A stretch of DNA of 58,886 nt, counting the filler, from Catajapyx aquilonaris (Eukaryota), in assembly GCA_000934665.2 (NCBI GenBank). It is 3 parts of 3 records of this genome, joined end to end, with 100 filler letters (N's around TTAATTAATTAA, not from the genome) between each part and the next. Parts side by side here need not be neighbours in the genome. Positions count along the whole stretch, not along the records: positions 1 to 19,550 come from JYFJ02006436.1; 2 more parts are not named here. One strand, 5' to 3'. The translations under genes and the position numbers were made by a program. The notes under the pieces were generated by a model. The model did no database searches. It had not been told where the DNA came from and worked only from the letters and a program-made list of their open reading frames with translations. Shown here piece by piece: positions 673 to 33,000 of the stretch. Positions within the stretch are counted from its first letter, which is position 1. Each line of letters begins with the position of its first letter.

Positions 673-753
673 AGCCGACAATATTTACTCGCTATTCCAC
701 CTATGACCTTCTGGAGAATCCCAAGTCTGAAGGCGAATTCATGTGGACGAACT

Positions 754-3700
754 TTATTCCTCATCATCATCCTCCTCCTCCTCCTCCTCCTCCTCCTGCT
801 CCTCTTCCTCCTCCTCCATGCCGTCGATGTCTTCCACGTCGTCTTCTTCGCTGGGGGGGTTGGCGTCCACCTTCTCCTCTTCTTCGTCGTCGTCGTCCAG
901 CTCCGAGCCTGGCTTGTTGATGTAAACCGTGCCACTCTCGTCGTCCTCCTTCGTCACAATGTCGTAGTTCTCCCTCAGATCTGTTGGGATTATTTACAAA
1001 CACGCATTACATACGGTTCCATGCACTCGATGGGTCTGGGGGTTTGGGTTAAGTTAGGTCACAAGAGCATGGAGGTCGCCAAAGCCACAATAACGTTCGT
1101 TGCCCTGCAGCGCCACAAGACGGACAGTAAGCATTGCGGATACAAAACATGCAATAAGAGCCCAGTTAAAATCATCAGGGAATGCGACCGACCGTGCCTG
1201 GCAGGGCGCCACAAGACGGCCAGTACTGGTGCGGTCACCCCAAAGCCATACAGATGACACCAACACAACGGGTTAGTTGTCAGGATACCCACATAGGAGA
1301 GCCTTGTAGATGGCAGCGTCGTCGAGGGAGGCAGCGATAACTGTCCTCACTCCATCCATAGAGGTCTTCTCAAGTTTGCCACCTTCGGCAGCAATCTTTG
1401 CGTCAGCCTTGGCCCACAGCCGACGAATTACCTGCAGGACCAGGCTCCTCGCCTGACGCGAGCTCCCACCCGCCTTCTGGCCGCCTCCTGGTCCTCCTGG
1501 TCCTCCTGGTCCGCCAGGACCACCTGGTCCAAAACCTGGTCCGCCTGGTCCAAAACCTGGTCCAAAACCTGGTCCGCCTGGTCCAAAACCTTGCCCACCT
1601 GGACCGAACCCTGGTCTACCTTGCCCTGGTCCACCGGGTCCGCCGGGTCCGAAACCAGGCCCCCCTTGTCCAGGTCCTCCTGGTCCAAAGCCAGGTCTAC
1701 CTTGACCTGGACCGCCTGGACCGCCTGGACCACCTGGACCGCCTGGACCACCTGGACCGCCTGGGCCAAAGCCAGGTCTACCCTGCCCTGGTCCTCCTGG
1801 GCCACCCGGGCCAAAGCCAGGTCTACCCTGCCCTGGTCCTCCAGGGCCACCAGGTCCAAAACCAGGTCTTCCTTGCCCCGGTCCTCCTGGACCACCCTGT
1901 CCGGGCCCGCCTGGACCACCCTGTCCGGGCCCGCCTGGACCACCCTGTCCTGGTCCTCCTTGGCCATAATTAGCCCAACCTTGTCCAGGCCCTCCTGGTC
2001 CAAAACCTGGTCCACCCGGGCCCGGTCCTCCTGGGCCATAACCTGGACCTCCAGGTCCGTAGCCTGGTCCGCCTTGACCCCCACCTGGTGGTCCTCCCGG
2101 TCCTCCCGGGCCATAACCTGGTCCTCCTGGGCCATAACCTGGCCCTCCTTGGCCATAACCTGGTCCTGCTTGTCCGTAGCCTGGTCCTCCGTAGCCTGGT
2201 CCTCCTTGGCCTGGTCCTCCTGGTCCATATCCTGGTCCACCTTGACCCCCACCTGGTGGGCCTCCTGGTGTGAGAAAGAGACAACAAGATTGGCAAATCA
2301 TGCGAGCGTGATTCTAGTATACTTTTCTCATTGGGCAGTGGGAAATAAGGCTGACAAACCCCATACGATACAACAGGATGCGAGTCTTAATCGGACAACA
2401 ATTACTATTGTTATCAGTCTCATTTGCAGCGGTTGCCACGGAACCCCCATTTATACGGTAATCTATGACTGTAGACTTGACCTCGTTGGATATAGTGTAC
2501 CCGGACAATCAGAAGTATTTGACCAAGAAACCTACTTATTGTCCACTGACTCGGAATCCGAAAACAGTTTGTCCCTATCTCATGCGGTTTAGGCCCTGAT
2601 ACCTGTCCACAGACGGACGGACAGACAGAGCCGTTCTATATAAGACTTTTTTCCGATGAGAAAAAGTCTAACAAGATTGGAAAATCACGCCGAGTGTGAT
2701 TCGATTAGACTTCATCACTGCCAAGGAAATTCTACAGGATGTAACACATGTTTCTGCCCCGCCACATATTGTGCTGAATAATTTTTTAATTGACATGTGG
2801 TGTATTCATTATGAATGTTTTACATGTATTCTTAATTGAAAGGATTGAGCAGCATGTCTGCCAAAACTATCCACAAGTTTGAATGCATGCTATGTGTGAC
2901 TGTTACCCATTTCTGGTCAAGTCTCTTAATTAACTGGCAGTAATTTTTTTGGACTGACTTGCTCACAGACATTGCACTACAACATGGCACTTAAGCGTTC
3001 AATATTGATGTCAGTCAGGGAGGCGGAGTGGTGCTGCGGTAACGTATGCGCCCACGGATGTTAAGGTCCCCGGGTTCGATCCCAACCCGGGGACACCCCC
3101 TTCTCAGGGTCACCTCTGGCTTCGTCTCGGGTGGTATTTCCTACAGACTAAACCACCCGGGGGAGTTCACTAAAAATGTCACAGTGTAAACATCCATATT
3201 CTAGAAGATTAAAAGATTTCTTTATGACTTTTGTTATGCACCTCAAATCTACAATATTAATGCTTAAGAGAACAATGCCTTAATCGCCTTTGGCCACCTA
3301 TCAGGTCTCGAGAACAAAGCACCTTCATGGGAGCCTCTCTCTACAGACAACACTTGCATTGCACATATGAGCACAAAATCAGGGCAGTGAGGAAATGGAC
3401 GGAGAAATTAGTCAGATTCGGATTCACCTGACACAATCTCATCGCGTTTGACGGTATATTTGTTTCAACAACCAAGCACTATGATAACTTTTATGCATCT
3501 GCAGGTAATCTACACTAATATATAATAATTTATATATACAATGCTACTATTAATTTTGTTGTAATGGAGTTTTGATGCTCAATGCTGCATTGTTGTGAGT
3601 ATAAGACATCAGATTACTCTCTTTTATGAGTCAAGGTTTGCGCAAGAACGCGCCAAATCATTGCGTAAAGCATACGTTTCCAAGTTACGACAACAGCTGC

Positions 3701-4280
3701 TAAAAATACGCTCAATTCATATTTGTTAAAAAAATTAGTTCCATTTAAAAGCTAGAGGAAAGTGAAATTTCGTTGGAATTGAGCATTCCAATCGTGGAGC
3801 ATTATTGATCACAATTGAAAAAAATCATATGAGACCACAATTTCAATCAATATCGAGTTATTTCACCTTGAAATTTAGATTCGATAAAATGTACGAGATG
3901 AGTTTTAAGAATTAACTTTTACCAACAGTTACTCATTAAAAATACGCTAAATTCGTGTTCAAGTATAATTACTTCAATTTAAGAATTTACAATCTTAAAT
4001 GAGATTCAGTTGGGATTGCGCATTAAAATCATGAAGCATTATTGATCATTACTGATATAAAATTATGTTAGACCACAATTTCAATCGCCATTTAGTTAAT
4101 ACATTTGGCAAGATTGAAGAAAATGCACGGCATAGTGAACCAGGCCCATCAGTTTGTGTTGAATGACCTCCTCGGGTCAAAGGTCACCTTACCCCTTTGT
4201 TGCTGCGAATATGCGCAAACACCCTGCATGACCACAGCCAGAAGGAGGAGGGCCAAAGGGATGCGCAGAGACACGCACAT
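754..4280 (-). CDS. Secreted GPGG-repeat (silk/elastomer-like) protein with conserved C-terminal domain and acidic tail; cluster member A, 428 aa
   Basis: Exon 4280-4193 encodes MCVSLRIPLALLLLAVVMQGVCAYSQQQR (signal-peptide-like) with donor G|GTAAGG. Exon 2264-1293 has acceptor ttctcacaccag, GPGG repeats, then LVLQVIRRLW...IYKALL and donor T|GTGGGT. Exon 980-754 has acceptor cccaacag and encodes LRENYDIVTKEDDESGTVYIN plus poly-D/E to TAA. Both introns are phase 1; 88+972+227=1287 nt. TATAAAA lies upstream and AATAAA downstream. Confidence 0.85.
2283..2670 (+). mobile_element. Non-autonomous Helentron/DINE-1-like repeat
   Basis: (GACG/GACA)n microsatellite at ~2611-2628 and terminal hairpin AGACTTTTTTC-cgat-GAGAAAAAGTCT. 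An inverted copy lies at ~11045-11397, and the start motif AACAAGATTGG recurs at 2671. Confidence 0.5.
3018..3180 (+). mobile_element. tRNA-derived SINE, family 1 (3'-truncated)
   Basis: A box TGGTGCTGCGG and B box GGTTCGATCC; near-identical to the minus-strand copy ending at 26098. Confidence 0.8.
3691..4086. repeat. Diverged ~235-bp tandem duplication in intron 1 of the GPGG gene
   Basis: AAAAATACGCT..AATTC, GCATTATTGATCA and AGACCACAATTTCAATC each occur twice at ~235-bp spacing. Confidence 0.6.
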
Positions 4281-4354
4281 CACTCGCACTGGATTGGCCT
4301 CGAACTCTCCGCCGCGCACGCACTCTCCTCGCCTCCTCTCTAATCAAGACTCAG

Positions 4355-4361
4355 TTTTATA
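4355..4361 (-). promoter_or_regulatory. TATA box of GPGG-repeat gene
   Basis: TATAAAA on minus strand ~75 nt upstream of the ATG at 4280. Confidence 0.65.
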
Positions 4362-4494
4362 TGCCATATTTTCAACCGATAATAATGCTCAAGCACCCTC
4401 CATTATTATTGGGCCGCACCGACCATTGATTGCATAGAAAGTGTCCATTCATTCTTCAGGTTGGTACAGGTCAGGACACTCCCCCTATTATCAG

Positions 4495-4717
4495 CTCTTA
4501 TCGCCTGCCGGGCCTGCCCGGGGCATGTTTCAGGAGGTGCCCGCATGATAGCGCACAATGGAGGTTTTCTTCACAGCTTAGACTAGTAGCGACACCACCG
4601 GACTCGGTAGAAGAGGAGCGAGTAGCCTCTCTTCTACCGAGTCCGGCGGTGTCTCCACTGCGAAGAAAACAGCCATAAAGGGCTATCATGCGGTCACCTC
4701 CCGGCAGGCGATAAGAG
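4495..4717. mobile_element. MITE/foldback element
   Basis: 18-bp inverted repeats CTCTTATCGCCTGCCGGG / CCCGGCAGGCGATAAGAG and an internal hairpin GACACCACCGGACTCGGTAGAAGAG...CTCTTCTACCGAGTCCGGCGGTGTC. Confidence 0.65.
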
Positions 4718-4781
4718 GTAGTGCCCAGACCATAGCTAGCAATTGAAACAGTTTTCATCCAAAGTAACAGTGTATACGTAC

Positions 4782-4930
4782 CCAGGAGGACCTGGAGGAT
4801 GGCTATGTCGTCTAGCATGTTGTGAAGGTTCTTCTTGAGCGTCTCTTAGTTGATCTCACCAAGTCTCATCGTTCTTCCGCCATATCTTCTGGATGACTAT
4901 CTCCCTCCCTGGAGGCAGCTGCACCGGAAC
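4782..4930 (-). pseudogene. Cluster member B, pseudogene fragment of the C-terminal domain
   Basis: LPPGREIVIQKIWRKNDET, then a frameshift, then EIN*ETLKKNLHNMLDDIAILQVLL, followed by the same phase-1 donor G|GTACGT as member C. It has an in-frame stop and no intact last exon was found. Confidence 0.8.
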
Positions 4931-5710
4931 CTCCCTGTCCTTGGTCGTTACAGTTGCACGGCGGAAGTGACGGACCCCATTGTTGCTGGGCATTGTCGTT
5001 GGCTTCAGCTTATGAAAAAGGAGATGTAACAATCTGACCCCCCAGTTCATAAGTGCAGAGACATGACACATGACTTCCTTTTGCCCTGGCGATGCAGCCT
5101 GACGCCTGAACGCCCTGCACATATGTTCTTCACGAGAATAAATTGTTGGTACAGTTTAATTGCGTCATGCATCCGATCAAATAGTCACATTGCCGGGATG
5201 TCTGGATTTTTATATTGGCCATTTTCAGAGCCATGAGAATGAGTCGTTCGTACCATTTAATAGCTGCATAAAAGTTACGGTATTGACCAGAGATACCTCG
5301 GATTTAGGAGACGGGTACTACAACAAGAACTCTACCTGAAATAAATTGTCTGTCCAGCTCCATTGTTGCCGAAAGACGTTGCCATGTCCCCCTAGAATTT
5401 TAACCTGGGTGGCTCTAATTTAGTTTTTTTAGCAACAGCTCGTGTGTGTGTATGTGCATGATTTTTTTAACATCAAATTTTCTGAGATGGTCGAGCCACC
5501 AACTTCTCTGGATTGACATGGAATGACCCAGTAATGTGATCCTGTCCACACTTTAAAATCTTACCAGTAAGAGTGCTGTCCCCAAAAATATTAGATGCAA
5601 TGAATCCCATAATTGCAAAATTGTTAAGTATTCAGACTTTATTTTTTGAAAGCTTCTCTGTTCCTTATAATTACTGTGAACATCTTGTCGTACGCTTCCA
5701 ATGAAAATGG

Positions 5711-7207
5711 TCAAGCACGGATGACGACCACTAGTCCCGGAACCTTCTCCTGGAACGTCACGATCTCTCCTTCTTGCTGGAGGGCTGTCCAGAAATATAT
5801 CGCAATGGTTCGTATTAAGCGCATGCAGCATGTTCAGAGTAATAGTGAAATGTACGTACCCAGGAGGACCTTTAGGATGGTGATATCATCCATGATGCTG
5901 TGGAGGATCATCTTGAGCACCTCCAAGTTGATCGCCTCCACCTGTCCAGTCCGATCGTTATTATCCCATATCCTCTGGATGGCCCTCAACACTATGTCCT
6001 TCCCCGGAGTCAGGTTCAGGACGTCCTCCAGCGCAGCCGCGTTGTTCGCACCGTACCTGCCCGGTCCAGGATCGGGTAGGTTATCGCAGTTGCACATAGG
6101 TGGTGGCCGCCATGGCGCCTGAGGACAATGCTGCTCTGGTGTGTTCTTGGGAGCAGCGAACAGTTTGCTCATGAACCTGACTCCCAACGCAGGCCCCTCT
6201 CCAGACGACTCTTTCGAGCCTTTTTTTTCTGCGCTTTTTGCCTCGCTTTCTTCTGGACTCCCTGTGAATGGTAGGGAACTCAGATGAGTCAAGGCGGCAG
6301 GAGTTTAAAAGAATGTAAACATAACCTGCTGTAAAAGATATCAATTTGCACATGAGTTACAGGCCTCTTTGGGAACCTCCGTTTACAAGGGAGTTTGAGA
6401 CCCCTTTGATATACGTAAACGGCTTTAAAAAATAAGTTGGATTTAAACATGAGCTGTCAAACGCAACAAGCCAGAAGAGCTTCAGTTGTGATTGCTAAAC
6501 AACATAATTTTTCAACTAATAATATTATATCACCTCTGAAAGTATCGGACACTTTCAGAGGTCATAAAAATTATTAGTCGAAAAATTGAACATTACAACT
6601 TAACGTCGACAACAGGATCAAATAATCTCAGCACTCCCCACTTGCAATATTAATTAGTGCACATTGTTAAAATGTCGGGTGAACTTAAAATGGCACTTGA
6701 CAATCAAAATGCTGCATTGTCATGTAACATAACATTATTATGCTATCACACATATTCGTATAATTTTTTTTATGACTTCGGTTTGTGAGGCTGTAAATCA
6801 GCCTACTTGTGAGACTTCAACATAGCAAGGTCACAAAAGGTCAGCATCACCTTTTTATTTTATTTTTAAATGAACATTTGGGAACATAATGATGTAAACG
6901 TAGCCATAATTACATACGATAATGGAAACCGGTTTGTTTCGGTCTGTTAGTTTTGTCTCAAAAATTAGTTGTCATGAAGAAAATTTCAGGAAGCATTTCC
7001 GCACGAGGCAAGTTTCATTTGAGGTCGAAACGCCTTTAGTGAGTAAAAACAAACTCTTAAAAAATACAGAGTATTATTACATTACCGGTATTATATGAAA
7101 TTATTATATTATTTATGAAGTGTTTACGTACTAGTTTTGCGCACGAGTTCAGCACAATTGCAAGCAGCCAAGAGCAGGAAAAGTGTGAGTGGTATTTGCA
7201 GAAACAT
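5711..7207 (-). CDS. Small secreted protein, cluster member C, 183 aa, apparently intact
   Basis: Exon 7207-7132 encodes MFLQIPLTLFLLLAACNCAELVRKT (donor A|GTACGT). Exon 6261-5860 ends ...DIVLRAIQRIWDNNDRTGQVEAINLEVLKMILHSIMDDITILKVLL (donor G|GTACGT). Exon 5784-5711 encodes ALQQEGEIVTFQEKVPGLVVVIRA*. 76+402+74=552 nt; AATAAA at 5643-5638. Confidence 0.8.
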
Positions 7208-8140
7208 GTCTTTCCTTCTCCTTGGCTTCACGGAAAGACCTTCACTTCACTAGCACTTGGACTCTGTAAAATTTTTATGGTCTAACTGCGTCGTCGTGAC
7301 TGTGATGTCAAACACTGTCAGATTGATATGGTGCCACATATTTATTCGCCATTTTCAAGTTCGAAAAGAATAGGTCGTTCGCACCATTTAATGACCACGT
7401 AAAAATCATCGGAGATACCTTCAGTAGCTGATTAGCAATTTTTAAGTGTTAATCTGCCGGCCTTTAAGCAGTTAATTTTGCTGCTAATCTTAACATGAAC
7501 AGGATCACATTCATATGTGAAACGCAATGAATTTTCTAGCAAATGAGAGTATGACCCATCAGTGACAATGTTGCATAAGTAGACAATCCTGCATTACTTA
7601 ACACTAACTTAATTATGATTACACAAATGGAGATTTTTGAGTTTCAAATATATCATTAGATAGACAAAGATGTGCACTATCCAGGGTTCACAGGGGGAAT
7701 GTTTTGGCCTCCGAGAAGTGTCAGAAAAAATTCACACTGCGGCGTAACTTCGGCAACTAGCATGTTCTTCTTGCGATAAAAAATTACACAATGAAAATAG
7801 GTAAACAACTCGCACATATGTTACGTAGATTTAAACAACTTTCTGACGATGTATAACGTTATTTTTTTGGACCATTTTCCTGGGAATTATTTAGAGTCAA
7901 ACACAGGGGCGAGTATTAAAAAATCCGATAGTACATGATTACGAGTACCAATCACCATCAGTAATCACGATGCGTAAAGACAAGAGTAACCAGGCAGCAT
8001 ATCGGAAGAGAGCTAATTAGTGCGTAACTTACCACTACTAAAATTAGACGCAATGAACCGGGAAATTGATTCAATACTAATAACAAAATTAGCTTTATTA
8101 TGTTTAACTTTTCCATTCCTCGTAATGTGTCCAATGAAGA

Positions 8141-8956
8141 TCAAGCATGGAAGAAGACTAGTCCTGGAACCCCCTCCTGGAACGTCACGATCTCTCCTTC
8201 TTGCTGGAGGGTAGTCCAGTGCAATGGTTAGTATTTAACGCATGTACAGTGATGGTCATAAATCGAGGCAACTGCCAGCGACATTTTCCGAAGCGGCAGA
8301 AGAAGGAATCTTGCTCGCCCGGCTTGTAAGTATGCTCATCTTCGATTCCTTCTTCTGCCGCTTCGGAAAATGTCGCTGGCAGTTGCCTCGATTTATGCCC
8401 AACACTGTACTGAGTAACAGTGAAGTGTACGTACGCAGGAGGACATTTAGGATGGTGACATCGTCCAGTATGTTGTAGACTGTAGAGGCTCTTCTTCAGC
8501 GTCTCCATGGTGACCTGTCTCACCAGTCCCATCGTTCTTCTTCCATTTCATCTGTATGACCCGCATCACTATCTCCTTCCCTGGAGTCAGATTGAGGATG
8601 TCCTCCAGCGCAGTCTCGTTTGCCGCTTCATACAGTCTGCTTGGTCCGTTCACTTGCTGCATGCAGTTACACGCAGGTTGTACTGGAGGCGGACACCGTG
8701 CTATCTTCGGTGTGTCCTTGGGCCGGTGAGCTCAGGAATCTGACTCCCAGTTTGGGTCCTTCTCCTGACCCATGTTCAGTCGAGCCTGATGCTAACTTGC
8801 TTGTGGCACTCCCTGTAAACACCGAACATAACGAGTTAAAAAATTCATTAAGCATTTAAGTAAATGGGAAATGTACGTACTGGTCTTTAGCACGAGTTCA
8901 GTGCAGTTGCAAGTGGCCAAAAGCAGGAGTACAATGAACAGTCGCGGCAGAGACAT
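8141..8956 (-). pseudogene. Cluster member D, pseudogene paralogue of member C
   Basis: Signal exon 8956-8881 encodes MSLPRLFIVLLLLATCNCTELVLKT. Exon 2 from 8812 needs about three frame changes (GEGPKLGVRFLS / ACNC...ALEDILNLTPGKEIVMRVIQ / VTMETLKKSL / NILDDVTILNVLL). The last-exon acceptor AG is lost (ggactac vs ggacag) and a MITE sits in intron 2. Confidence 0.85.
8247..8407. mobile_element. Tc1/mariner-type palindromic MITE (161 bp)
   Basis: TA-CAGTG...CACTG-TA with ~65-bp inverted arms; absent from the equivalent intron of member C; second copy at 27551-27712. Confidence 0.9.
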
Positions 8957-9750
8957 GACTTCCCTGCTTTGGCTTCACGACAATACTGCCGTCCTTACAT
9001 AAGGACAGAAGGCCATAACTCAGTAGCCACTTTCCCTCGTGACGAGAAAAGAATGAGCCGTTCGCCCTTTGACGGCAGCGTTTTTTGGACAGTATTTTCT
9101 TTTCTTTACCAAAATTTGTAGCAGGATGAGTGATGCTAATGAAAAAGAATGCACTCCGATATTTATCATTTCAACTCTTGGTGGTTCTATGAATGTAAAA
9201 TAACCAATTGGCTCAGGATATACCTAAAGTCACCTTGATGTAAAGTGATACTCCGGTGACCATATTATGTCCACTGTACACTGTACTGAATCTCCATGTT
9301 GTCTAGTGTCTTCATTTTGTACCGTATACATAAAAGACAATGTTAAGATAACTAGGCCACTAATTTTTTTTAAAAACTGTTTCAGATTGCCAATTATATG
9401 AGCGACACTGTTTCATGCAAGGACGTCCTGTAATAAAAGTGACATTACAGGTCAGCATTTTTTAACCTTCGTTATTTATTAATTGAAAGTGACCATAGTT
9501 CATCATTACATGTTGAACAACCCATATCGATCGCTTTACAATGAAAAAAATGGCAAAATACTTCTTCGTTTGTTGCATTCCATCTGAGGTTCAATTAATG
9601 GCGAGAATTACTGAATACTAAAAATTGGTCTCGCACAAAAATATCTCAAAACGAACATGTTTCCTAACTTATATAGTATGTAATGAGATGTGATGCACCC
9701 CGTCCGTTGTGATACAAAACTGATAAGTTAAATGAATCCTGACGAGGACA

Positions 9751-12373
9751 TCAGCATTGCGAGGCAGGTCCTTGGTCCTTTGCCTCAAGCTTGCTGTTGG
9801 CACTTGCGAATCCGGTACCACCCTGAAAATTGAGCGTCAGATTAGTTACAGGCAAGACTAAATTGCTGGATCATATTACCCTCTGCAGTGAAATTATGTC
9901 CGATTCAGTCAGAGTTTCATCAGTCATCGGATGAAGCCAGTCCTTCTTTATGATGCGATCGACACATTCCTGTGTCACCACATCCCCACTTTTGCCAAGA
10001 AAAAAGTAGGTCTTAGAGACACCAGACTATTAGGTACACTATGAGTAAAAGTACTGCAAAACTCACGTGGTTTTGATGACGCAACATGGCACCGAGTTTC
10101 TCAGGATGTCGTGCGTTACAGGGCACATGTATCGGTCGGTCCTGGCAATCAGAGGCGTTGCATTGTCAGGATCATTAACTTCAGTGAACCTGACGTCAAT
10201 TAGTTCCTTGATCTTCAGAGGCTTTCCGCTTACAGGGCAATAGATGGCCTTGTCCTGCAAGCGTGAGTGTCAAAATTAGCTATGTCCAAGTCATAACGGG
10301 ACTGAAGTGGACGTGACTTTACAGGTTTCCTGAGTAGTGTCTGCTTGGCGTCAGGAGTCTGCGTTGGGATCCAAAAACTTGGTAGCTCCTTGTCCCTCCC
10401 TTCCGTCATGTTGGACATCGTGTTGGAGCTGCTTTGACCCTGTTCGGGCATCTCCTTGCTGGAGACAATTTCCTTCTCCCTCTGCTTGAAGGCTTCCAAC
10501 TTGGCTTTCTTGCAGCTGGCAGCCTCCTCGGACACATCCTTCTCCGCCTGACGTTTCTGCCGCTCGTATTCCTTCGACTTGCGGGTAAACTCTTCACGCT
10601 TTGCTACCACATACTCCAGAACAGCCTCCTTGTCGTACAAGACTCCATCTGGCCTACAATTTAAATAAAATGTTATTCACTCACCTATAGAAAGTCAAGT
10701 TTGGCTGAGGAAAAATACCAGATGGTCCAACATGAAACAGACTACAAATAAATTATGCGCACTTTGCTGTATCATGTCAAATTTAATTTCACGCAAAGAA
10801 ATTTTGTCAGACAGATATTAAATCCGATGGAACTTCATCCAAATTTTTTAGCCCCATAAAATTGGTTTTATTGCTCAACAATGCCGAACGGTGATGTATC
10901 ACTCATAATTATGTAAACACAGGCTAATTCATATAACTTTTTTTTTTTACCGATATTAAGAAATATTGGCAGTGTTTTATGCATTTATTGCTGCAAATTG
11001 TCAACTAAAGGATCCCTTCCAGGATTGATTTTGCAGTGTTCTGCAGTCTTATAGAAAGGCTCTGTCCATCCGTCCGTCCATCTGTGGACAGGTATCAGGG
11101 CCTAAACCGCCAGAGATAGCAACAAACGGTTTTCGGATTCGGATTCACTGGAACCATCCGGATTCACTCTATCCGCCAAGGTCAAGTCTACGCCTTATAA
11201 ATGAATTTTTTTGGGGTTGCCTTTTCTTATTGGACAGCGGGAAGTAAGGCTGACAACATTCTATGCGAATTGTTGACCAGTTAGAATCGCATCGTGTCAC
11301 ATCGTATCGGATTCAACAAAGTTGTCAGTAGCACTGTCCACTGCCCCATGAGAAAAAGTGTACTCGAATGACACTGGCGTGATTTTCCAATCTCGTTTCA
11401 TGCAATATTATGGGGAACAGTTTCCAATAAAAATTATTGCGGAACACTGCCGTCAGTTGTAAGAAGACCGCAACTCAAAAACTAGTACGGGCGAAAGTCG
11501 CATGCATGCCACGCACTAATCCACCCTGGCTCAGAGGGGATAAGTGCAGGGCGTGCATGCGACTTTCGCCATTACTAGTTTTTGAGTTACGGTCTTCTTA
11601 CAACTGATGGCAGAACACTGCAAAATCAATCCTGGAAGAGATCAGTTTGTGTCTGTGAATCGGATTCCCTTGCATTGCTCCTTTTTCAATGAGGTTGCGC
11701 CAAGTTGTACAATCATCAGTTATTGGCGTGCCATGAAAGCATCACAATATTAATCGATTACAATCACATTGTGAGTGTCGTAAAGCGTGTTACGCCCAGT
11801 ACAGTCCTGGACAAATTAGCCGTCGCTGAATGTTTTTTTTTAGGCGGAGGCGGCGGCGGCGTTACCTGGCAACCCCGTCCGGCGGGCCAATTCAAACGTC
11901 AGCCCATGAAGAGCGCTTCCATTGTTGCCACTGTTTACAAATCGAGTGAGTGAGTGCGCAGGCGCTGGGTCGTCTGCGTCACTCACTCGATTTGTAAACA
12001 GTGGCAACAATGGAAGCACTCTCCTTATGCCGATGTTTGAATTGGCCCGCCGGACGGGGTTGCCAGGTAACGCCGCCGCCGCAGCCGCCGGAAAAAACCA
12101 TTCAGCGACGGCTAATTTGTCCAGCACTCTACCGATCTGCGTGTAAAGTGTCCCTAATTGCGACAATCCCTTAATTGAATCCGGCAGGTAGTCTTACGTG
12201 ATGACAGGATTCCTGCAGGGTTGCAGCGTGAGGCTGCAGCAGTCAAAGTCCTTCACCGAGTCCTTTCCCATCCGCTGCGACCTGGATCCATACCCAGAGG
12301 CCTTTGCATCCTTCCTTTTCTCGTGGTAAGTGTACACCGCACCAGCAGTGCAGTTCTTGGCATGGCGAGTCAT
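9751..12373 (-). CDS. NOSIP: Nitric oxide synthase-interacting protein (split U-box/RING-type E3), 291 aa
   Basis: Begins MTRHAKNCTAGAVYTYHE...GKDSVKDFDCCSLTLQPC; contains LPSFWIP, CPVSGKPLK, RYMCPVTHDIL and LQRGGTGFAS. Exons 12373-12198, 10653-10323, 10254-10067, 9988-9880 and 9822-9751 are all GT-AG, total 876 nt. Confidence 0.95.
11011..11643. mobile_element. Nested intronic TE complex
   Basis: Outer ~34-bp inverted repeats GATCCCTTCCAGGATTGATTTTGCAGTGTTCTGC / GCAGAACACTGCAAAATCAATCCTGGAAGAGATC enclose a Helentron-like copy (11045-11397) and a palindrome (~11446-11613). Confidence 0.65.
11802..12129. mobile_element. GC-rich foldback MITE
   Basis: ~150-bp inverted arms (CTGGACAAATTAGCCGTCGCTGAATG ... 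CATTCAGCGACGGCTAATTTGTCCAG), which explains the mirror ORFs on both strands. Confidence 0.8.
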
Positions 12374-12948: not shown

Positions 12949-13419
12949 TTAGTAAGACATTGGAGGCTGTCCATACAATGGAGGCCCAAATGGAGGCCCA
13001 CCCGATGGGCCATGACATGCCGGTGAGGGAGCACGGAACAAAAACACTGTTTGAAAATACAGGACAGGTACATAGTAATGGAGCCAAATAACGGTAGTAG
13101 TGTTGACCCTGAGAGGAATGGAGTGCAGACGATATCCTGCTATGCGGACAAATCTGTTCGCACTGTATCCTGCTGGATACCCCCATGCCGGATGGCCAGG
13201 ACTTCTTTGTCCATGCCTCTCCTGGTCGTATGCCATGCGTTTCTCCTTGTCGATCAGCACCTGGTAGGCTCCATAGATCTCCTTGAACTTCTCTTCAGCC
13301 CCCGGATCCTTGTTCTTATCTGGATGCCACCTGAGGGCCAGCTTGTGATAGGCTCTCCTAATGTCCGCATCGGTAGCGTTGGAAGCAACGTCCAGGATCC
13401 CATAGTAGTCCTTCGGCAT
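12949..13419 (-). CDS. Small J-domain (DnaJ/Hsp40) protein, ~156 aa
   Basis: MPKDYYGILDV...IRRAYHKLALRWHPDKNKDPGAEEKFKEIYGAYQVLIDKEKRMAYDQ with an intact HPD motif; short atypical Pro-rich C-terminus; 3' structure uncertain. Confidence 0.8.
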   Translation of the reverse strand: MPKDYYGILDVASNATDADIRRAYHKLALRWHPDKNKDPGAEEKFKEIYGAYQVLIDKEKRMAYDQERHGQRSPGHPAWGYPAGYSANRFVRIAGYRLHSIPLRVNTTTVIWLHYYVPVLYFQTVFLFRAPSPACHGPSGGPPFGPPLYGQPPMSY

Positions 13420-14642
13420 CACTCTTGATCCGAAACAATCAATGGTGCTGGTCCATACAAGACAATAATGTACATGCTGGTACATATAGAATTCTAGAAA
13501 TGTTACGTACATATATAAAAGGTAAAGTTTGTTTATTTGTTCATGGCATCAGGTCTCCATGGCTTGATTGCTGCTTAGAGTGATTATACATACATTTGCC
13601 ATGGAAACAGGCAGTGCGTGGCAGTGCGGCATCTCTTTCTAAAGAGTGTTAATGTTACCCTTACGCTTTTATCCCCATGTTATTGAGTGCATAGGACTTT
13701 ATAGTTAAAAATGTAATTCCGTGCTTGTGTGAATACCTCTCAGTTCCAAGGAAATTAGTATAGTTGCAGCTCGTCCTTCCCTTCACGTGTAACCCGACTT
13801 AATAATTGTCTCAGGGCTCAAGACTTTTCCTCCATCACCAAGCAGCACCAAGTGTCCCTAATCTGCTTCCTCCATCTTCACGCCTGCCTGCAACCACAAA
13901 GTGCACGATAAAAGTAAAAAGAATATTGCGAAGGGAAATTGTCAAAAAATTACCTGAGCTGGAAGGTCGCCATTTTGGATCGGGGCCGAATGCAACGCAG
14001 CTTCCGATGGAGTAGCAGCGACCTGGTTCGCTGTTATTCGGGAATAACGAATATCGATCCCCTTTTCACATCTAAATCATTATTAAAATGCCTGAGATTC
14101 CTGAAATGACACTTTATATGCGTAATTACATGCGTAAGTAGCATTGCAGGTAGGCCACATGCTGACCATTCCAAATGGGTTGGGCTAATCCAAATGCATG
14201 TATTGATGTCATGCATTAGAAAAATGAACTGTACTTCACATATTGTAATACATACAGTTATTTAATATAAAATTAGACAATTAACATTGGAATATGATCA
14301 CAACCTACATTTTATTGTCACATAAAAAATATTACAACATTGGGCTGGGAAAGAATTTTGCAATTTTAAAATGTGCGGGGGGTCTCGGGGAAAATGCAAA
14401 GTGAACAATAATACATGTATTACTAACACTGAACTAGCCGGAGGTTATCTCTAATTTGCTGCGACCACTGTTTCCACACGGAACCCATCTGTCAGCAGCC
14501 TCGTCATTTACACTCTTTTTCAATCCACAATTGCACAGCAGTTAATGGAGTAGTCATTCGTCTGCTTAACGATTCAACTGCTGGAGCATCCCAGGTGTCT
14601 TTGGTAGGACACAACACAACTGTGCAGATCATACATCATGGT

Positions 14643-15740: not shown

Positions 15741-18700
15741 TCACTTCTTTTTGGTGTGAACCCCCATATGCCTCTTCAAATGCTCTGACCTACGGAACTT
15801 TTTCTTGCATAACTTGCAACTGAAGGGCTTGTCCTCTGTGTGAATTTGCATGTGCTTATTCAAATTTCCTGACTGACTAAATTCTCTCTTGCAAATCTGG
15901 CAACGAAATGGCTTCTTCCCTGTGTGAATTCTCATGTGGATAGTCAAATTTCTTGACTGACTAAAATTTTTCTCGCAAACCTGGCATTTGAATGGCTTCT
16001 CGTCTGTGTCAAGGTGAACCAACATGTGCTCATCCAAATGTTCTGACCGTCTAAACTTTCTCTTGCAAACCTCGCAACGGAATGGTTTCTCCCCTGTATG
16101 GGTTCTCATGTGTACCTGCAAAGTAACCGACTGACAAAAGGTTCTCTCGCATAGCTCGCAGCTGAATGGCTTCTCCTCCATGTGAGTCCTTTTGTGCACC
16201 TTCAAATTTTCTGGCAGACTAAAAGTTTTCTTGCAAACTTCACATGCGAATGGCTTCTCCCCATTGTGGGTTCTCATATGCCTCTTCAAATGCCCCGGCC
16301 AGTTAAATTTCTTCTTGCAAATATGACACTGCTTGTCTTTCTGGATCGCATTCTTCACCTTCTCTTGATCACCTTGTACCTGAAATGGTTATGACCTCAT
16401 GAAATTCATAGTTAAAATTGATACATAATGCAAGTGTACATGTAGAGAGAATTTGGAGGACTGGGTATGCTTGCCACGCAACTTTATTACCAGGGCATTC
16501 CATCGGTCTTCACCAATGTAATTTGGAATGCATGCAGGACTGGCATGGTCTGTGACAACTATATTATTTCATCTCCACTGGCAAGGTTCCAAAAATGTAC
16601 ACCGTACAAAGACACAATCAAGGTCCGTGCTACATACCGTGAGATCAACCACTACCCGGATTATTATAATAATATTATTATTATTTCACCTACTACTTAT
16701 AAGTTGTCAGATTACTGGGAAAGGTAATTTCACCCATTTTCTGGTGCATGCCGTAAGTAAAAGCTAAAAATGACTCGTAATTTATTATTACGCTTTGGTT
16801 TGTTGCAATATCTCAGATAATAATATTAATATTTTTGCACAGTTTCTCATGAACATGTCTGCTTCGAAGATGTTTCAAAGCTAAAAGTCTTAAAATTTTC
16901 AAATTTTGCAGTAGCCTTAACTTTCTCACAACCCTTGAGAAGTTCCTCAGAACGTCGAATTTGCACACCAAAGAGGCAAATTGGTCAGACATACCGTTAG
17001 GTGTCAGGAGCTTTATAGTACATTGAAAATAATTGAGGCGCTCAGAGGAAAAACGGCATATCCCAGTTCATTCTGAGATAAACGGCTTCTTGTGTTGCAA
17101 GAGAACAGAATTTTCCATTGCAGACCAATGTTACAAGTGTGATTATGTGAGATTTGGCATATCCCAATTCATTTGGGACTTCAGCACATGAAAGGTAGAT
17201 GGCAGGAGAGTACAACAGCACTACAATCTCAAAATCGGAGGTCGGTTGGGATATGACGGTTTTTCCTCTGAGCGTCTCAATTGGCTCAGGTATCTAATCA
17301 TCAAGAATTGAAGAAGGGTGCGGTGCAAGATGGTGTAAGTCAATTTTTGATCGGCATTCAAATGAATGGGTAGACCAGATTGATAAAAAATTGCCGGATC
17401 ATTTGGTACAAGAACGGGAATCAACGCCCTGTGCAGGGGCGACACCCTTCTGCCCTTCACAGGTAATGACAAACTGTGGCTAATTATTTGCAATTAGCCT
17501 ACTACACAATGGCCCACAAGACCAGTTTTTAAGGCATATCAAGTGTATATGTATGGAATTCAAATTTTATACAGAAACATCCTAAAAATAATACAGATGT
17601 GGATATCCCGACCACACTACCACCAATAGGCTACAACATTATAGCTCACCACAAGCAAATATAAAAAAACAATAAATAAATAAGGAAGTGTTCAAAAATG
17701 GCTTAGTGAAACAGACATTCCAATAGTTATCACTTGAATTGGCACCAGATTTGTACAAAATCATTTGCATTTAAAAAAATGGCATGTTTCATAAGAAGGC
17801 CTCATTGAAGAACTAGGTAACAATAAATCATGGTGTCAGTTAAAGAGAAATGACTTAACTGAAATACGAGTTGCAGTCAAGAATTACTTGCACGTAATTT
17901 TTTTTAGCCATTGGGCATGACATTGACATATTTGCATTTAAAGGAACATGAAATACAGTCCACGTGGGATTTTTTGACAGATGTTTCTTCGCTGACCGGG
18001 TGCCTGTTTCTCAGCCCTGCAAACATGGGACCTTACCAATACTTCAGCAAAGCTGATCAGCGTGATGTGGTGCGATTTCTTTTTCTGAAAGGGAAAAGTG
18101 CTCCTGTGATCCTCAAAGACAAGCAGTCCATATGTGGGAACTCCGTCATGCCCTTATGGACAATCCAGTGGTAGGTGAAGGAGTTCAAGGAAGGGCGTAC
18201 AAGTGTGACGCATGCCTCAGGAGCTGGCCGTCCGTCAACTGCCACAAACAACACCACTGTCAGCCGCATGGAGGAGATTGTCATGGGCAACAGGCACATG
18301 ACTGTGGATGCTGTAGCTGATGTCATGAACATTTCGCATAACATTATGCATGTTCATCTGAAGATGTCCAAGTGGTCCAAGTCATCCAGGTGGGTGCCGA
18401 AGAACCAGGTGAGGGATGTGCTGAAGGACCACAACATAGAGCTCTTGCCACACACCCCCTAGTCTCCGGTTGGCTCCAAGCGATTTTTGGCTGTTTCCTA
18501 TCTTGAAAGACGAGCTCAGAGGTCGCAAGCTCCCTTCTCACACAGCCCTCGGGAGTGCCATTTTCCAGCATGGGAAAAGATGATTTTTTGGGGACATACC
18601 GAAAATGGGTACACTGTTGGAAAAAATGTGTAGCAAGACTGGGTGACTATGTGGAGAAGTAGGCGAAAGCAAAAGACTGTACATCGCTCTTATGTCAGTA

Positions 18701-19550: not shown

Positions 19551-19650
19551 NNNNNNNNNNNNNNNNNNNNNNNNNNNNNNNNNNNNNNNNNNNNTTAATT
19601 AATTAANNNNNNNNNNNNNNNNNNNNNNNNNNNNNNNNNNNNNNNNNNNN
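19551..19650. other. Scaffold gap with TTAATTAATTAA spacer
   Basis: N-run, TTAATTAATTAA, N-run; 100 nt; same as the second gap. Confidence 0.95.
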
Positions 19651-21112: not shown

Positions 21113-23354
<2,242 letters not shown>

Positions 23355-25178: not shown

Positions 25179-26098
25179 AGGGCGATCAAACTTTTTTGTC
25201 GTTTTAGTTATTGACAAATTCGGCCTTAGTTGCTTATATTGTAGCCGTGTGTAGCAACCAGTTGTGGAAATCAGAAATCGGAAATAACAACAGTTGATAT
25301 TATACAGTTATATTAGGGATTAAACAACACAAAACAAATGAAGAATGGCATTCGAATTTGTCCGAATCGATCTTCACATCAACTGGATATCAACTGTTGT
25401 TATTTCCGATTTCTGATTTCAACAAAGAGTTCTGCTATATTATATATACACCTAGAGGAGGCACTCGGCCTGAAATGTGAGGCAGGCAACAATGCAGGCA
25501 ACAATATTACCTCCAACAAGATGGCGGATGCCTGACATTATTGAACTAATTGTCGCCCAGTTGTCATTATTGGTTGTTGTCCCAGTTGCTAGACAACTGT
25601 TAGAACAACAATATTACCTCCAACAAGATGGCGGCTTCCTCAGCCTGCCCGGCCTGTCTAATGGAAAAGGATGGGGAGTACCTCCTCTAGGTATTATATT
25701 ATATAATATCAGAACTCTTTGGATTTCAATAACTAAAGCGACAAAAAAGTTTGATCACCCTGTATAATAATTGTGGGGGTAGTGCTTCACCTTTCGGCGT
25801 TCGGCACGGACCTTTATTATTTGATCGTACATAGTGTACAAGTTGGAGCCATTGAGAAGCGCCCGGGCCCACGGGCAGGATGACAGGAGGGGATGTGCAA
25901 GTGCAGTGCATCTGACGTGGTGGCCATTTTTAGTGAACTCCCCTGGGTGGTTTAGTCTGTGGAAATACCACCCGAGACAAAGCCAGAGGTGACCCTGAAG
26001 TCTGCACGAGATGAAGGGGGTGTCCCTGGGTTGCGATCGAACCCGGGACCTTAACATCCGTGGGCGCATACGTTACCGCAGCACCACTTCGCCTCCCC
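25116..26098 (-). mobile_element. Full-length family-1 SINE with (TTA)n tail and 15-bp TSD, interrupted by MITEs
   Basis: TGATGAGGAGGTGAA is duplicated at 25101-25115 and 26099-26113; tRNA-like head at 26098; (AAT)n tail ~25114-25177. Confidence 0.85.
25178..25762. mobile_element. TA-targeting MITE inserted in the SINE tail, carrying a nested inverted-repeat element
   Basis: TIRs CAGGGCGATCAAACTTTTTTGTCG / CGACAAAAAAGTTTGATCACCCTG with TA flanks; inner IR CCTAGAGGAGG(C/T)ACTC at 25451 and 25691. Confidence 0.85.
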
Positions 26099-26926: not shown

Positions 26927-27550
26927 CTAGTACATATGGGAGGTCAATTGTAATGCATGCAGAATAGATTCCTGCAGATCATAATTCACAATTTGATAGA
27001 GTCCATTTACCTGTAGAAATATTTGCATCCTTTTCAAAAAGTTCGAAAATCTGTCACTGGCATCAAAGTGTCCAATTACACAACAGGATAACAACACCCA
27101 AAATTTAAAGGAAACTATAGTGAAACCACTGAAACCTTGTGGTTGGATCCTCCAAGATCCTCCCACCAATACCATCATCTCAAGTTGATGGGGTCATTAT
27201 AAAATGACCACACATTGAACAAGAGAAGTGGACAGTGATAATGCAGTTTGGACAACTTAATCTGGAACCCATTAAAATTCTAGCTGACCAACCTAACTCG
27301 AGATGTATGAGACATGGCTTCTGTCATTATAGCCTATGTTAGTTCTGCTAGCCACAAAGCTACAGCGATTGGACCATAGTTATAATTATATTAAATTTGG
27401 AAGGAAAATATAATTATTTATGAAAACACTCCAACTTTTGACCATTGACTATGTATTCCTAGTGCAAGAGTTACCGAAAGGCTCGAAATAATAGCTCTAT
27501 TTGTTGATTGGCTGGTGTATCATTCAGGGAAGTACAGTGATGTTTGAGTA

Positions 27551-27712
27551 CAGTGCTGGCCATATATCGAGGCAACTGCCAGCGACATTTTTCTGAAGCG
27601 GCAGAGGAAGGAATCGAAGATAAGCATGCTACAAGCCGGGCGAGCAAGATTCCTTCTTCTGCCGCTTCGGAAAAATGTTGCTGGCGGTTGCCTTGATATA
27701 TGGCCAGCACTG
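27551..27712. mobile_element. Tc1-type palindromic MITE, copy 2
   Basis: TA-CAGTG...CACTG-TA; same family as 8247-8407. Confidence 0.9.
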
Positions 27713-30067
27713 TACAAGGGAGTGGCTTCATCATGTAAGCTGGTCCAAGAGAGGATTACAATGGCCTTGCACACTCAAGTCCAAGTGTCCAACCAATGCT
27801 GCAGGATGTAATACCAGAGCTTATACTGAAATGAATGGATGCAGTGTAGCTAGGCCATGCTGACACTGCAATAAGTGAATGCAGGGCTTAACTGGTGTTA
27901 CATCAGGACTAGACTGGCCGATGAACCAATAGACCTACCGCCATTATAAGGGGTCAGTAAAAAGTGGGCTCTATGGAATTTGTAAATTGCCTGATATTTA
28001 TGAAAAACGGGGAAAAAATCTAGTCCATTTATTTGACAGCCTTTTGCAATGTTGTTGGGGTAGGTGTGTAACTAGGGGAGGGGGTGGGGTGGGGAAAAAC
28101 TATTGAGTTTGGTGTGGGAGATGAGAGGAGAAATTAGATTTGTCCTCCATTCTCCAATGTAACCTGCCTACCTTGGCAATAATTGCACAGTCCATCAAGA
28201 GAAGGAACTTATGACCTGTTGTTACAGTTACTATTATACAGCATCTTCCACAATGTGGACTGGTTTTTCAAATTAATAAAAATACCTTTTGGTGATATTC
28301 CCTTGCATTTTTCTTTTTATTTAGTGTGCTACTGATTTCATTGTGGCGCACTTGTCAGTATGTAATATGCAAGACAATAATAAAAAGTCACATGCTATGC
28401 TCTTGGGCTTTTCACACGAAATTCAACAGCAGATCGTTTTATTCGAAATCATTTTAGCTGCACAGAAGGCTTGCTACTTCAAACCTGGCCATGCCAAGCT
28501 AGGCAAAACATGACTGGTAGCAGTGCCACCACCTACTTGCACCCATACTGCCCTTAGAGAATTCATTTACACACCTGTAATGCCTGCCCTGTACTGGGGG
28601 TTGCTTAATTGTATGTGATGCAGCCTGCCTGCTCTAGTAAATCACAATCTGAAGTACTTGTCCTCTGTTTGTGACTGAATATTTACCTACCTTTTCAGCT
28701 GCATTGCCCTGTACCACTCACCATACTCCATACATTTGTGCTTGACAGAAATGGTTTTGTTCCAAACTAAAGTAAACACATGAGAGGCTCTGACTCTGCT
28801 TATATTGGCACTTCACATCTCAATAATTGCACAAGTAATTATGTAACAGCTTGCTTTAGGCTGAGAACACATACTTCATTTTCATTGAACATGAGATTAC
28901 TCAGGTATTGTACGGATGGTGTTACGCAAAGAGGAACCAACATATTTTTAATAAGGGCGTTGGGCAGGAGTGAGATTGGTCACTCTTACCACCCCTCCTA
29001 TGGTCAAGTCACTCTCACCTGGAGGAAAATTCATTTCATGAGCTCATACTGTCTCGGTATGGGTCATGCAACTGATCCTAGTTCATTTTATGTCCCCCTT
29101 CTCCACTTCATCTTACACAGATATAAGTTGCCTTTTGCAAAATACCATCCTATTATTGTCTATTCAGACCCTGAGCAGTTGTCAAATCTTACATGCATCA
29201 CTGTTACAATAATTTCACCGGGTTCAACATCAAAAATTGTTGAAATTAAAATTAACAATCCCAGAAAAATAAAATCTAAATTATAATAACAAGAAACTTC
29301 AAACAACTTAATAAATACTCTGCACATGCAATAAACTGTACATAAAAATTTATGCACCTCGTTGAAATTGCAAAAAGGTGAACGTCAAGAGAGCATTGTA
29401 TGTGATACATTGTATGATACAGGCTTTTGTTGCATCCAAATACTTTTTAGCACTCATTCAGATGACTAATACAGTTATGCCATGTACTGCATTGCGGTAT
29501 CTTACTCCATGTGGCCTGTAATACTTGTAGACATGCATTGTTAAGGCTCTTTTGTAAAAGTCTCTGAGTGTTCAACAAGTGTTGAATATTTTGCTCAATT
29601 GCAAGGAGGGAATTGAGAATGTGCCCGAGTCCAAATTCCAAAATTTACATAATGCTAAAGGATAAGCCACAAACCACATTCAAGACGATCCATGCAGCCT
29701 CACCTTCAGAATTCTTTTTGTCATTTTCCATCAATAGATCAGACTCAAATCACCTCATCCCTCTTATGATTACATGTAATTTTCTAGAGCAGTTATTCTC
29801 AAATTTGTTTAAAAAATGCACACATGTTAGGATCTAAATGCAGGAAGGATCCAGACTGAATACAGTGGCTAAGAGAGTTAAAAGGAGTGCGACAATAATC
29901 ACTGAAAGGAAGATGGGAAAGCAGTCTGAACTATATCACGTGGAACTGTCCTAGTGCTTGGCTAGTCTAAAATGTGATTTATGGAATCACCCCAAAGTAC
30001 TGTTTTTAGTACATGGAATCAGACACTTTTTTAGCCCATTTTGAATATCTAAAAGTCATGACTATTG

Positions 30068-33000
30068 CTATGCAGGACAATTTCTGAGGAAGTCAGTGTC
30101 AAAAAAGAGAACTGCTATGGTGATGTCATCCCTAAATGATCTGACAAGATCAGATGGGAGAGACAGCATCTGGGCAAGTCTAGCGTGGTCCAGTCCGTAG
30201 TCGGTGCCCCCCAGGGCATTTCTAACAAGGTGTGTCGCCACATTGGCATCCTGCGGCTTCATGGCCAGTCCCTTCTGGCGCTGCTCCAGCATCTGGTACA
30301 CCTCACTGACTTTCAAAGGGCGGGGTGGGAGACGGAGAGGACTCAAGGTCACCTTTCCAGACATGTGCTCTCCAACTAGACGTACCACCTGCATGGGGCT
30401 CATTTGTTCCCACAGGCCATCTGAAGCCAGAATCAGAAAGCGGTCACGGGGAGTCAAGCAGTGATGTGTCACCTATTTGGAATGGACAAACATTATATTG
30501 GCGTTTGAAGAGTCACAGATAGTTGGCGTTGACTTACCTCCGGCATGGCTGTAAGATAAGGTGGTGTGTAGTAATTAGGTGGTATCACTTTCTCTCCAAG
30601 CCTCTTGATCAGTACTTTCTCCATGACATCTTTCTTCCACTTGTACCTTGGGGTCACCCAGGAATGAGCAAGAATCAGCACAAACACTGAATTTATAAAA
30701 AAATCTGCTCTGATTTGAAGCAGCTTCAAGCAGTTTTTAGTTAACACTTTGAACTGATGTACCACACTGTTTTCATTGTTGTGTAAATATCTATTAACCT
30801 TTTTACTGGGCAGCACTTCCAGTCAAAATGAACTGCTAAAAATAGGGTTATTGAAAAATGGACAATACCAAACTAACCTGAAATCTCCCAATGCCCTGAG
30901 AGGTGCCAGCTGCCCTAGTAACCTGTGCTGCTGTATGACTGTCTCCTTCTCATTGTCTGGGTGCTCCCCAATCAGTCTGGCTACCTCCTCCGCATTGTCT
31001 GCATTATGCTCCTGGGTTAAAACACGGGCCTTCCAGCTCCCTGGTGTCTCTCCTGCCACTCCCAGCACAGCCTGGCAATCACCTGCACTGGCCACGTGCA
31101 TATGGGCTCCATCCACATGCACGACACATGCCACTGACCCTGACACAGCCACAGCCAAGGTTCGGGGATCAGCTGGAAAGTATAGGTATCCACATATCAC
31201 AATTAAGTTTTTTTTTTAAACTTTCATATCGTCTGACTTCACTTTAGAAAGAGAAAGCCAAGAAGTACATAATTCAACCTTCATTACCCCCGCCCCCTGT
31301 ATCGCCTTTTTTCGACCCCATACACCATGAGAGGGTCTCATAATAATAAATAACGGAGCAAAGAAACAATGGAAAACGAAAATATTGGTGGGGGAGTGGA
31401 GGATGGTGTATAGTGTATGGTGTATTCCTTGCACTCGTCCCTTCTTGCCCAACCTCTATGTGCGGGGCCAAATTTCGGATGTTTCTGTTGCTCGTATCTC
31501 GGAAACGGCTGGACAGTGTCAGCTAAAACTTTCACCACTGTGTCTATGGCACATGAATGACCCCTCAAGCAAGTTTCAACCAAATTGGAGGAGACCGACC
31601 TTGACCATTCCCTTGTCAGTAAAGCGATTAGGCTAATACATGAAGGTAGATGTAGAGATTTTAATAACCAACATGCTCCAGAGGCTCCACTGTTGCCATC
31701 CACTGCTTCCCTGGACATGTCAGCATCCAATCTGAGAAATGCTCGCTGCAACACTTGCTTCATGGAAAAATCTTTTCTTGTTCCATGCGAGGCTTGCAGA
31801 TCCTTCAGGAAGGCACGAAAGCTCTGAGCATATAGCCTCTGCAGGTCTTCCACGAGCTCAAATCGGTCGTTATAAATCTCCAGAAGATCAATAGGGCAAC
31901 CCGAATCTAAAGAGGCAATGTATTCAGACAGGAGGTCTGGTGGTAGTAGGCTTGCAGACACGTAATGGAACAGGCGCTCAGATATAACTTGGGAACAGGC
32001 ACTGCCTCCATGGCCATCGAACACACCAAACAGCATCCCTGAAAACAAAGATAAGGTGCATTCAAAAGTAGAAGAGTTCTTAAATGATACAAAATGCAAT
32101 CTACCATAAAACAGACATAGCATGAAACTGCTTGTTGGCTGAGTCTTTGGCTTACCAAGGTAGGACAAATTTCAGAATGGATATGTGACTGTCCCTTTCC
32201 CTTTTCGTGAGTGTACTTGATGACAACAGTGTTTCACCTTTCATGCCACTATAAAGCGGCACCAGTGTAAGATACACAGGGTGGAGGGAAAGTTGCGCCC
32301 AATCGCCAGGTAGACTGATAGTACTCACAAAATTAATATAGGGATGTGTTTAGGGAATAGGCTCTGTTGCATAGTTAATGTGTATGGCGCCCTTAAAGTG
32401 TAGAGGGCCAGATGGTAAAATATGAGGTAAAAATGACACCCGGATTCTTACTCTGACAGGATTTGATCGCCTTTTGCACATGGACGAAGCATTAGGGGAC
32501 CAAGGCTGGATTATTCAGAGGCCCGCGAGCTTACTTTTGCTTCCTCGAAGCTGGCGGAATGGATGTGACGTCACAAAACTTTGACGGCACCACACACATT
32601 AACTACGCAACGGAACCCAAAACTAATTGCACATCCCTATATTAGTTTTACGAGTACTATCAGTCTACCTGGCGATTGGGCGCAAGTTTCTCTTCACCCT
32701 GTATACTCTCTAGTAATAATGTCTAGTAATTTGCATTAAATCTACCATCTACTAGCCTGTAGTCAGCAGACATCTGGCTTCAGTTCTGCAGTCTTCAATG
32801 GGACTGTTTGATGCTAGCTGGTTGGTGTCAAAGGACTTGATACTGCCGGGGATGTTGATGTCCTCAGTATGTTCTTGTGCACGTAAGATGGTGGTTACCT
32901 TATTTTAAAAATCAGGTGTGATTTTTTAAATTGAAGAACTAGTATTATTTCAGTGTAACTTTAAATATTAAATTAATGCACTTGTTACAGAGCCAATAAG

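Follow-up and report, generated by a model that had tools for sequence, protein, structure and literature searches.

Secreted Gly-rich proteins of arthropods, such as cuticular proteins, tick cement and the regions of this kind in type II crustins, have a signal peptide and Gly-rich low-complexity sequence, and they are found in tandem clusters that turn over fast. The vertebrate PRNP/PRND system combines a signal peptide and a Gly/Pro repeat with a small globular C-terminal domain of helices and short strands, next to which lies a repeat-free paralogue. Among spider silks, the flagelliform and MaSp2 spidroins are built from elastomeric GPGGX and GPGQQ repeats together with non-repetitive terminal domains, as set out in excerpts of two published accounts (PMC6168590, PMC8753598). 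Here we describe a locus of Catajapyx aquilonaris (GCA_000934665.2) that recalls these systems in part: four tandem copies (A, B, C and D) of one three-exon gene, lying on the minus strand at positions 754-8956 of a window of 58,886 nucleotides. The window is the whole stretch of DNA that was analysed, three parts of the assembly joined by filler.

The sequence points to a genuine family of secreted proteins, encoded by three-exon genes in tandem and probably lineage-restricted. A signal peptide that looks cleavable is encoded by exon 1. Exon 2 encodes a variable, probably disordered middle and most of a conserved module of ~75 residues, which exon 3 completes. Copies A and C are intact, and copies B and D have been decaying after duplication. 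Taking these elements together, we lean modestly towards a set of secreted proteins with a disordered middle and a shared docking module, in which A would be an elastomer-like component of a matrix or secretion and C its short partner.

Gene structure of the four copies

The minus strand was read over positions 700-9100, and the four splice junctions put forward in an earlier reading of this DNA (hereafter the original prediction) were then tested. The two intact copies are laid out as follows, with a slash marking the exon-intron boundary.

4356-4361, minus strand: TATAAA of A, about 70-75 nt upstream of the ATG
4193-4280, minus strand: A exon 1, a 29-codon signal-peptide-like exon with its ATG at 4280-4278 and phase-1 donor G/GTAAGG
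1293-2264, minus strand: A exon 2, with the Gly/Pro-rich repeat core at about 1480-2264 and then the first ~52 residues of the module (1293-1446)
ending at 1293, minus strand: donor of A exon 2, CTA T/GTGGGT, phase 1
754-980, minus strand: A exon 3, with the module end (916-980), a 53-residue polyacidic tail (757-915) and the stop (754-756)
753-758, minus strand: AATAAA of A, overlapping the stop at 754-756
7273-7278, minus strand: ATAAAA of C, about 70 nt upstream of the ATG
7132-7207, minus strand: C exon 1, signal-peptide-like, with its ATG at 7207-7205 and phase-1 donor A/GTACGT
5860-6261, minus strand: C exon 2, with a non-repetitive middle carrying three Cys, the first part of the module and donor CTG G/GTACGT
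5711-5784, minus strand: C exon 3, with the module end and the stop at 5711-5713
5638-5643, minus strand: AATAAA of C, 3' of the stop

The four tested junctions read as follows.

4193/2264, A intron 1: donor AAAGGG/GTAAGG, acceptor CTCACACCAG, phase 1
1293/980, A intron 2: donor TCCTAT/GTGGGT, acceptor ATCCCAACAG, phase 1
7132/6261, C intron 1: donor AAACTA/GTACGT, acceptor CCATTCACAG, phase 1
5860/5784, C intron 2: donor TCCTGG/GTACGT, acceptor TTCTGGACAG, phase 1

All four are GT..AG introns in phase 1 with a pyrimidine-rich tract before the AG acceptor, and intron 2 of C is 75 nt long. Joining the exons by script gave stop-free products of 428 aa for A and 183 aa for C. A phase-1 GT also stands directly after the codons for LL in each of the four copies (CTC CTA T/GT in A, CTC CTG G/GT in both B and C, and CTC CTG C/GT in D). 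The first exons of A, C and D each close with a phase-1 donor and are hydrophobic, their best 9-residue Kyte-Doolittle means being 3.44, 2.74 and 3.59, respectively. A and C each have a TATA-like box about 70-75 nt before the ATG, and in A, C and D an AATAAA is found at the stop or within about 75 nt beyond it. By eye, the sequence near the ATG is similar in A, B and D, and the 5' leaders are similar in B, C and D; of these similarities the C-D match over leader and exon 1 is tool-derived.

The remaining two copies, and the palindromic elements found in or beside them, occupy these positions.

8881-8956, minus strand: D exon 1, signal-peptide-like, with its ATG at 8956-8954 and phase-1 donor A/GTACGT
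8435-8812, minus strand: D exon-2 homologue, with three frame changes and its pieces in four ORFs
8244-8410, no strand assigned: palindromic MITE-like insertion in D intron 2, 167 nt, arms 97% complementary
8141-8211, minus strand: D exon-3 homologue, in which the AG acceptor of C reads TA
8094-8099, minus strand: AATAAA of D, 3' of the exon-3 homologue
4783-5071, minus strand: B, a pseudogene with a family-type start (ATG 5071-5069), an exon-2 homologue and the donor after LL kept at 4783
4533-4701, no strand assigned: palindromic element directly 3' of B, at the expected position of exon 3

Copy D has thus been damaged by three frameshifts, loss of the intron-2 acceptor and the 167-nt palindromic insertion, and its exon-2 pieces are scattered over the ORFs at 8667-8855, 8447-8731, 8185-8547 and 8256-8495. 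The MITE-like element of D recurs at 27548-27715 with 90.5% identity. Copy B retains a PPCNCN motif and the domain but carries one frameshift after ...KNDET and one in-frame TAA, and an exon 3 of B was not found. A tblastn search of the whole 58.9-kb window with spliced A and C revealed no fifth copy.

These observations agree with much of what the original prediction had claimed, namely that ORFs listed separately are joined by splicing into one family, that A, C and D begin with a hydrophobic signal-type exon ending in a phase-1 donor, and that all four copies have a phase-1 donor right after LL. The frames and lesions likewise confirm two intact and two dead copies, the birth-and-death pattern that it had described.

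Homology among the copies and searches for relatives

The domains of A and C had also been said to align. This holds for the spliced module, for which BLASTP gave 39.7 bits (E 9e-11) at 27% identity over 73 residues, phmmer gave E 1.8e-9, and the Smith-Waterman score was 92 against 24.8 +/- 4.4 for shuffled sequences, none of 5000 shuffles reaching 92. With exon 2 alone the signal is weak: BLASTP found no match between A and C, and tblastn without composition correction gave a marginal E of 0.001-0.004. The phase-1 intron after LL falls in the same alignment column in all four copies, and this is independent of the similarity scores. One row was left out of the family alignment, that of the short exon-3 piece of A, which MAFFT had misplaced. 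Defined by similarity of the spliced module together with the phase-1 intron after LL, these copies constitute one new family.

At the DNA level, C and D align only in exon 1 with a short leader, in the second half of exon 2, and in intron 2 with exon 3, and the identity of these alignable stretches is 74-79%. Across 158 aligned codons we obtained dN 0.269, dS 0.559 and an omega of 0.48, a value that fits purifying selection during part of the C-D history followed by decay of D. One might argue instead that no copy is a working gene and that the cluster consists of decaying or never-expressed ORFs, since two of the four copies are clearly dead and the searches that we ran found no homologue. 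Given the two intact multi-exon frames with complete promoter, splice and poly(A) signals, a C-D omega below 1 and an A-C module kept at 27% identity though the DNA no longer aligns, we regard this as very improbable.

We searched for relatives of the module using unspliced pieces as queries, that is, with the module lacking its joined exon-3 end. No Pfam family was found at E <= 1 for A exon 2, A exon 3, the domain part of A or C exon 2, and for the unspliced read-through of C the one match, to an unrelated viral family, was sub-threshold and at chance level. A profile search of PDB sequences reached a best E of 0.89. In word-indexed protein searches, 0 of 3 candidates scored for C exon 2 and 0 of 56 for the domain region of A. 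Two attempts with Atlas gave no usable match. A profile search of the domain had been proposed with the original prediction; built from the part of the domain that exon 2 encodes in each of the four copies and run against 1,835,955,588 representatives, it returned no match at E <= 0.001. The description of the domain as unrecognised is therefore upheld across Pfam, PDB sequences and the protein profile search, none of which yielded a described family. Three repeat motifs of A had no full-text match in the literature, which was not otherwise searched for the family. Two metagenome loci, out of 431 pattern matches, were rejected as spurious because they share only the seeded Pro-rich motif of 13-17 residues and nothing else of A or C.

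For comparison, the neighbouring NOSIP-like exon at 10233-10676 (minus strand) found a single relative at E <= 1e-10 (P0001, 49% identity). That protein carries PF04641 and PF15906, which we take to be the Rtf2 RING-finger and NOSIP zinc-finger families, and the exon itself gave two sub-threshold matches in Pfam. Because even a conserved housekeeping exon finds one relative, at 49%, the protein libraries appear to cover this lineage thinly, and the meaning of the homology negatives is limited accordingly. The locus is a genuine cluster of secreted-protein genes and appears to be orphan; its module is unrecognised and one of its members is silk-like, and the poor coverage of the lineage weakens the orphan status.

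Repeat core of copy A and nature of the module

Copy A consists of a signal-like start, a Gly/Pro repeat of ~260 residues, the shared module and an acidic tail. The repeat core extends from residue 31 to about residue 293, with Gly making up 57% of it and Pro 25%. Within the opening 262 residues of exon 2 there are 149 G, 66 P, 18 Q, 11 F, 9 Y and 5 R. Its blocks run in the order GPGYG-type, GQGGPGGPG and QGRPGFGPGGPG, so that Tyr-type units are followed by Gln/Gly and then by Arg/Phe-type units. Tandem Repeats Finder reported periods of 9 to 81 nt in the core, and some units are 100% identical, which indicates a recent expansion by slippage or unequal exchange. The Gly codons are mixed (GGA 60, GGT 47, GGC 32, GGG 15), as are the Pro codons, while the repeat persists at the peptide level; the two alternative sense frames contain 2 and 7 stops. 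Over its 53 residues the tail carries a net charge of -34, and part of it is encoded by a (TCC)20 microsatellite (plus strand). Beyond its signal peptide A has no Cys and C has three, and the middles of C and D are about 75 residues long, non-repetitive and equipped with three Cys. The end of the A repeat aligns with GPGRYG in C and GPSRLYE in D, just upstream of the module, and we infer that the core may have grown from a short seed resembling this stretch.

A 431-aa ORF on the plus strand at 1297-2592 lies antisense to the Gly/Pro repeat and is without signals of its own. We rejected it as a gene and consider it a low-complexity by-product, although it could be miscalled as one. Intron 1 of A contains, at 3010-3200, a repeat that looks tRNA-derived and SINE-like by eye and has a copy of 88% identity at 25925-26097.

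In the reading towards which we lean, the GPG-x-YG stretch before the module, also present in C and D, would have been expanded in A by slippage to give ~260 residues of GPGGX, GPGQG and GPG(Y/F)G units, an elastomer-like, disordered chain bearing Tyr and Phe. A would further have gained its 53-residue polyanionic tail, which could aid solubility or serve to bind Ca2+, a cationic matrix or cationic partners. Together, the repeat expansion and the tail suggest that A is most likely an extracellular matrix or secretion component, for instance of cuticle, of an egg or spermatophore coat, or of a glue, and C may be a short partner with the same docking module. The original prediction had gone further, proposing a structural system (silk, cement or coat) with the spidroin- or fibroin-like design of a repetitive core and a conserved terminal domain. 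Copy A, with its repetitive core, repeat chemistry and C-terminal domain, fits such a view. However, with A as the sole repetitive member, a silk or cement role has only partial support, and the proposed design is not a family trait given the short, non-repetitive middles of C and D. There is also no sign of spidroin or fibroin membership, since no Pfam model matched at E <= 1.

The same features could be read differently. The proteins may be small secreted signalling, immune or other non-structural proteins, with C as the ancestral form and with the repeats and poly-Glu tail of A produced by microsatellite slippage and having no material role. Three of the four copies (B, C and D) are short, non-repetitive and Cys-bearing, a (TCC)20-type trinucleotide array underlies the tail of A, and the core of A includes perfect tandem units of the sort that slippage produces. 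Immune and reproductive gene families, moreover, commonly gain and lose copies fast. Yet the 428-codon frame of A is intact across ~800 nt of repeats in which the other two sense frames have stops, and its repeat chemistry is ordered in blocks by residue type. No dibasic-flanked peptide or amidation motif was noticed in C by eye. On balance it would seem rather unlikely that the family is non-structural throughout.

As for the module, it may adopt a small alpha/beta fold of about three helices followed by a beta-hairpin, and it may act as a common docking or self-association unit. The AlphaFold modelling proposed with the original prediction did not provide a usable fold. An AlphaFold (AF2) model of the exon-2 part of C, made with a shallow family alignment, shows three helices at low confidence (pLDDT 50.7). 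The second query was unspliced C, comprising exon 2, the in-frame 75-nt intron and exon 3, with X at the intron stop; its model (pLDDT 61.8) has no hairpin, and its sole confident region, helical, is a hydrophobic stretch coded by the intron, so we discarded it as an artefact.

The order of a helix, a linker, two helices ending in L-x-x-L-x-x-E-G-x-I-V and a short hairpin presumably resembles that of winged-helix domains such as the C-terminal domain of RPA32, a likeness that is a lead and not a result. A winged-helix fold consists of three helices and then a two-stranded wing. It is conceivable, on this likeness, that the module has a winged-helix-type fold and derives from an intracellular protein; it would then either have been moved to the secretory pathway or belong to proteins that are still intracellular and whose first exons were misassigned. 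A contains an internal ATG at about 2301, shortly before the acceptor of exon 2, from which an unspliced product could start. Neither Pfam nor the PDB sequences, however, gave a match between the module pieces and winged-helix families, and misassignment is argued against because three copies have homologous hydrophobic first exons with a donor phase that fits exon 2. We consider this explanation improbable. More speculative still, and very unlikely in our estimate, is that a winged-helix-type, normally intracellular fold was recruited to the secretory pathway as the terminal docking domain of a GPGGX-type elastomer outside spiders. Such recruitment would amount to an independent invention of an elastic repeat core with a small folded terminal domain, in which the polyanionic tail could switch solubility or mineral binding, with C as a partner in a capping or regulatory role.

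Several points weigh against our own reading of a secreted family with a shared docking module and an elastomer-like member. Both the genes and their secretion were deduced from the DNA sequence, the signal peptides were assessed from hydrophobicity and visual inspection, and nothing links the family to any tissue or material. The structural role suggested by the repeats of A may not extend to the whole family, as A is its only repetitive copy. Weak constraint would also fit the omega of 0.48. The fold of the module is not established by either model, and the poor coverage shown by the NOSIP-like exon makes the term lineage-restricted uncertain.

The wider window and comparison with known systems

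By eye, the translations of several other ORFs in the window resemble familiar domains, and these lie, together with short N runs at 19551-19650, 39188-39287 and 56912, as follows.

12949-13548, minus strand: ORF like a DnaJ-domain exon
15741-16388, minus strand: ORF like a C2H2 zinc-finger array
18175-18462, plus strand: ORF fragment like a mariner/Tc1-type transposase remnant
21258-23146, plus strand: ORFs like VPS4-type AAA ATPase exons
30068-32171, minus strand: ORFs like PP2C-type (pyruvate dehydrogenase phosphatase-like) exons

Provided that A and C are expressed and secreted, the locus would add an unrecognised folded module to the few terminal domains known beside elastomer-like Gly/Pro repeats. 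It would also show a repeat core growing from a few residues in a young family, with a short intact paralogue and two dead copies alongside. For biomaterials, A would offer a GPGGX-type protein that is compact at 428 aa, brings its own polyanionic tail and would be easy to express. Should the genes be silent, or the module be known in better-sampled relatives, the locus would be one more fast-evolving orphan cluster among the many in arthropod genomes.

With the secreted Gly-rich proteins of arthropods, the cluster shares a signal-like exon, Gly-rich low complexity (in A), a tandem arrangement and turnover of copies. Unlike the cuticle proteins (CPR and related), the family pieces contain no R&R chitin-binding or other Pfam cuticle domain. 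The family also differs from type II crustins, in which a Cys-rich region and a WAP domain come after the Gly-rich region, in giving no WAP or other Pfam match and in its Cys content, with none in A after the signal peptide and three in C. The pairing of repeat-bearing A with neighbouring, repeat-free C is reminiscent of PRNP and PRND, although this is an analogy of architecture only: the sequences are not related, and inspection by eye showed no GPI signal but a C-terminus that carries an acidic tail instead.

Pfam holds models for the conserved N-terminal and C-terminal domains of spidroins, and no spidroin terminal domain was detected in the locus (Pfam, E <= 1). Spidroin cores are very long, with ensemble repeats of poly-Ala or GPGGX. 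A is without an N-terminal domain, its repeat is ~260 residues long and not thousands, and GPGGX-type units occur in A and in no other copy. A furthermore has introns, a polyacidic tail and repeat-free paralogues. What it does share with the spidroins, as far as the excerpts cited above describe them, is a secretion signal, a core of GPGGX-, GPGQG- and GPG(Y/F)G-type units and, after this core, a C-terminal domain that is conserved and free of repeats. The likeness of A to spidroins is one of design and not of membership.

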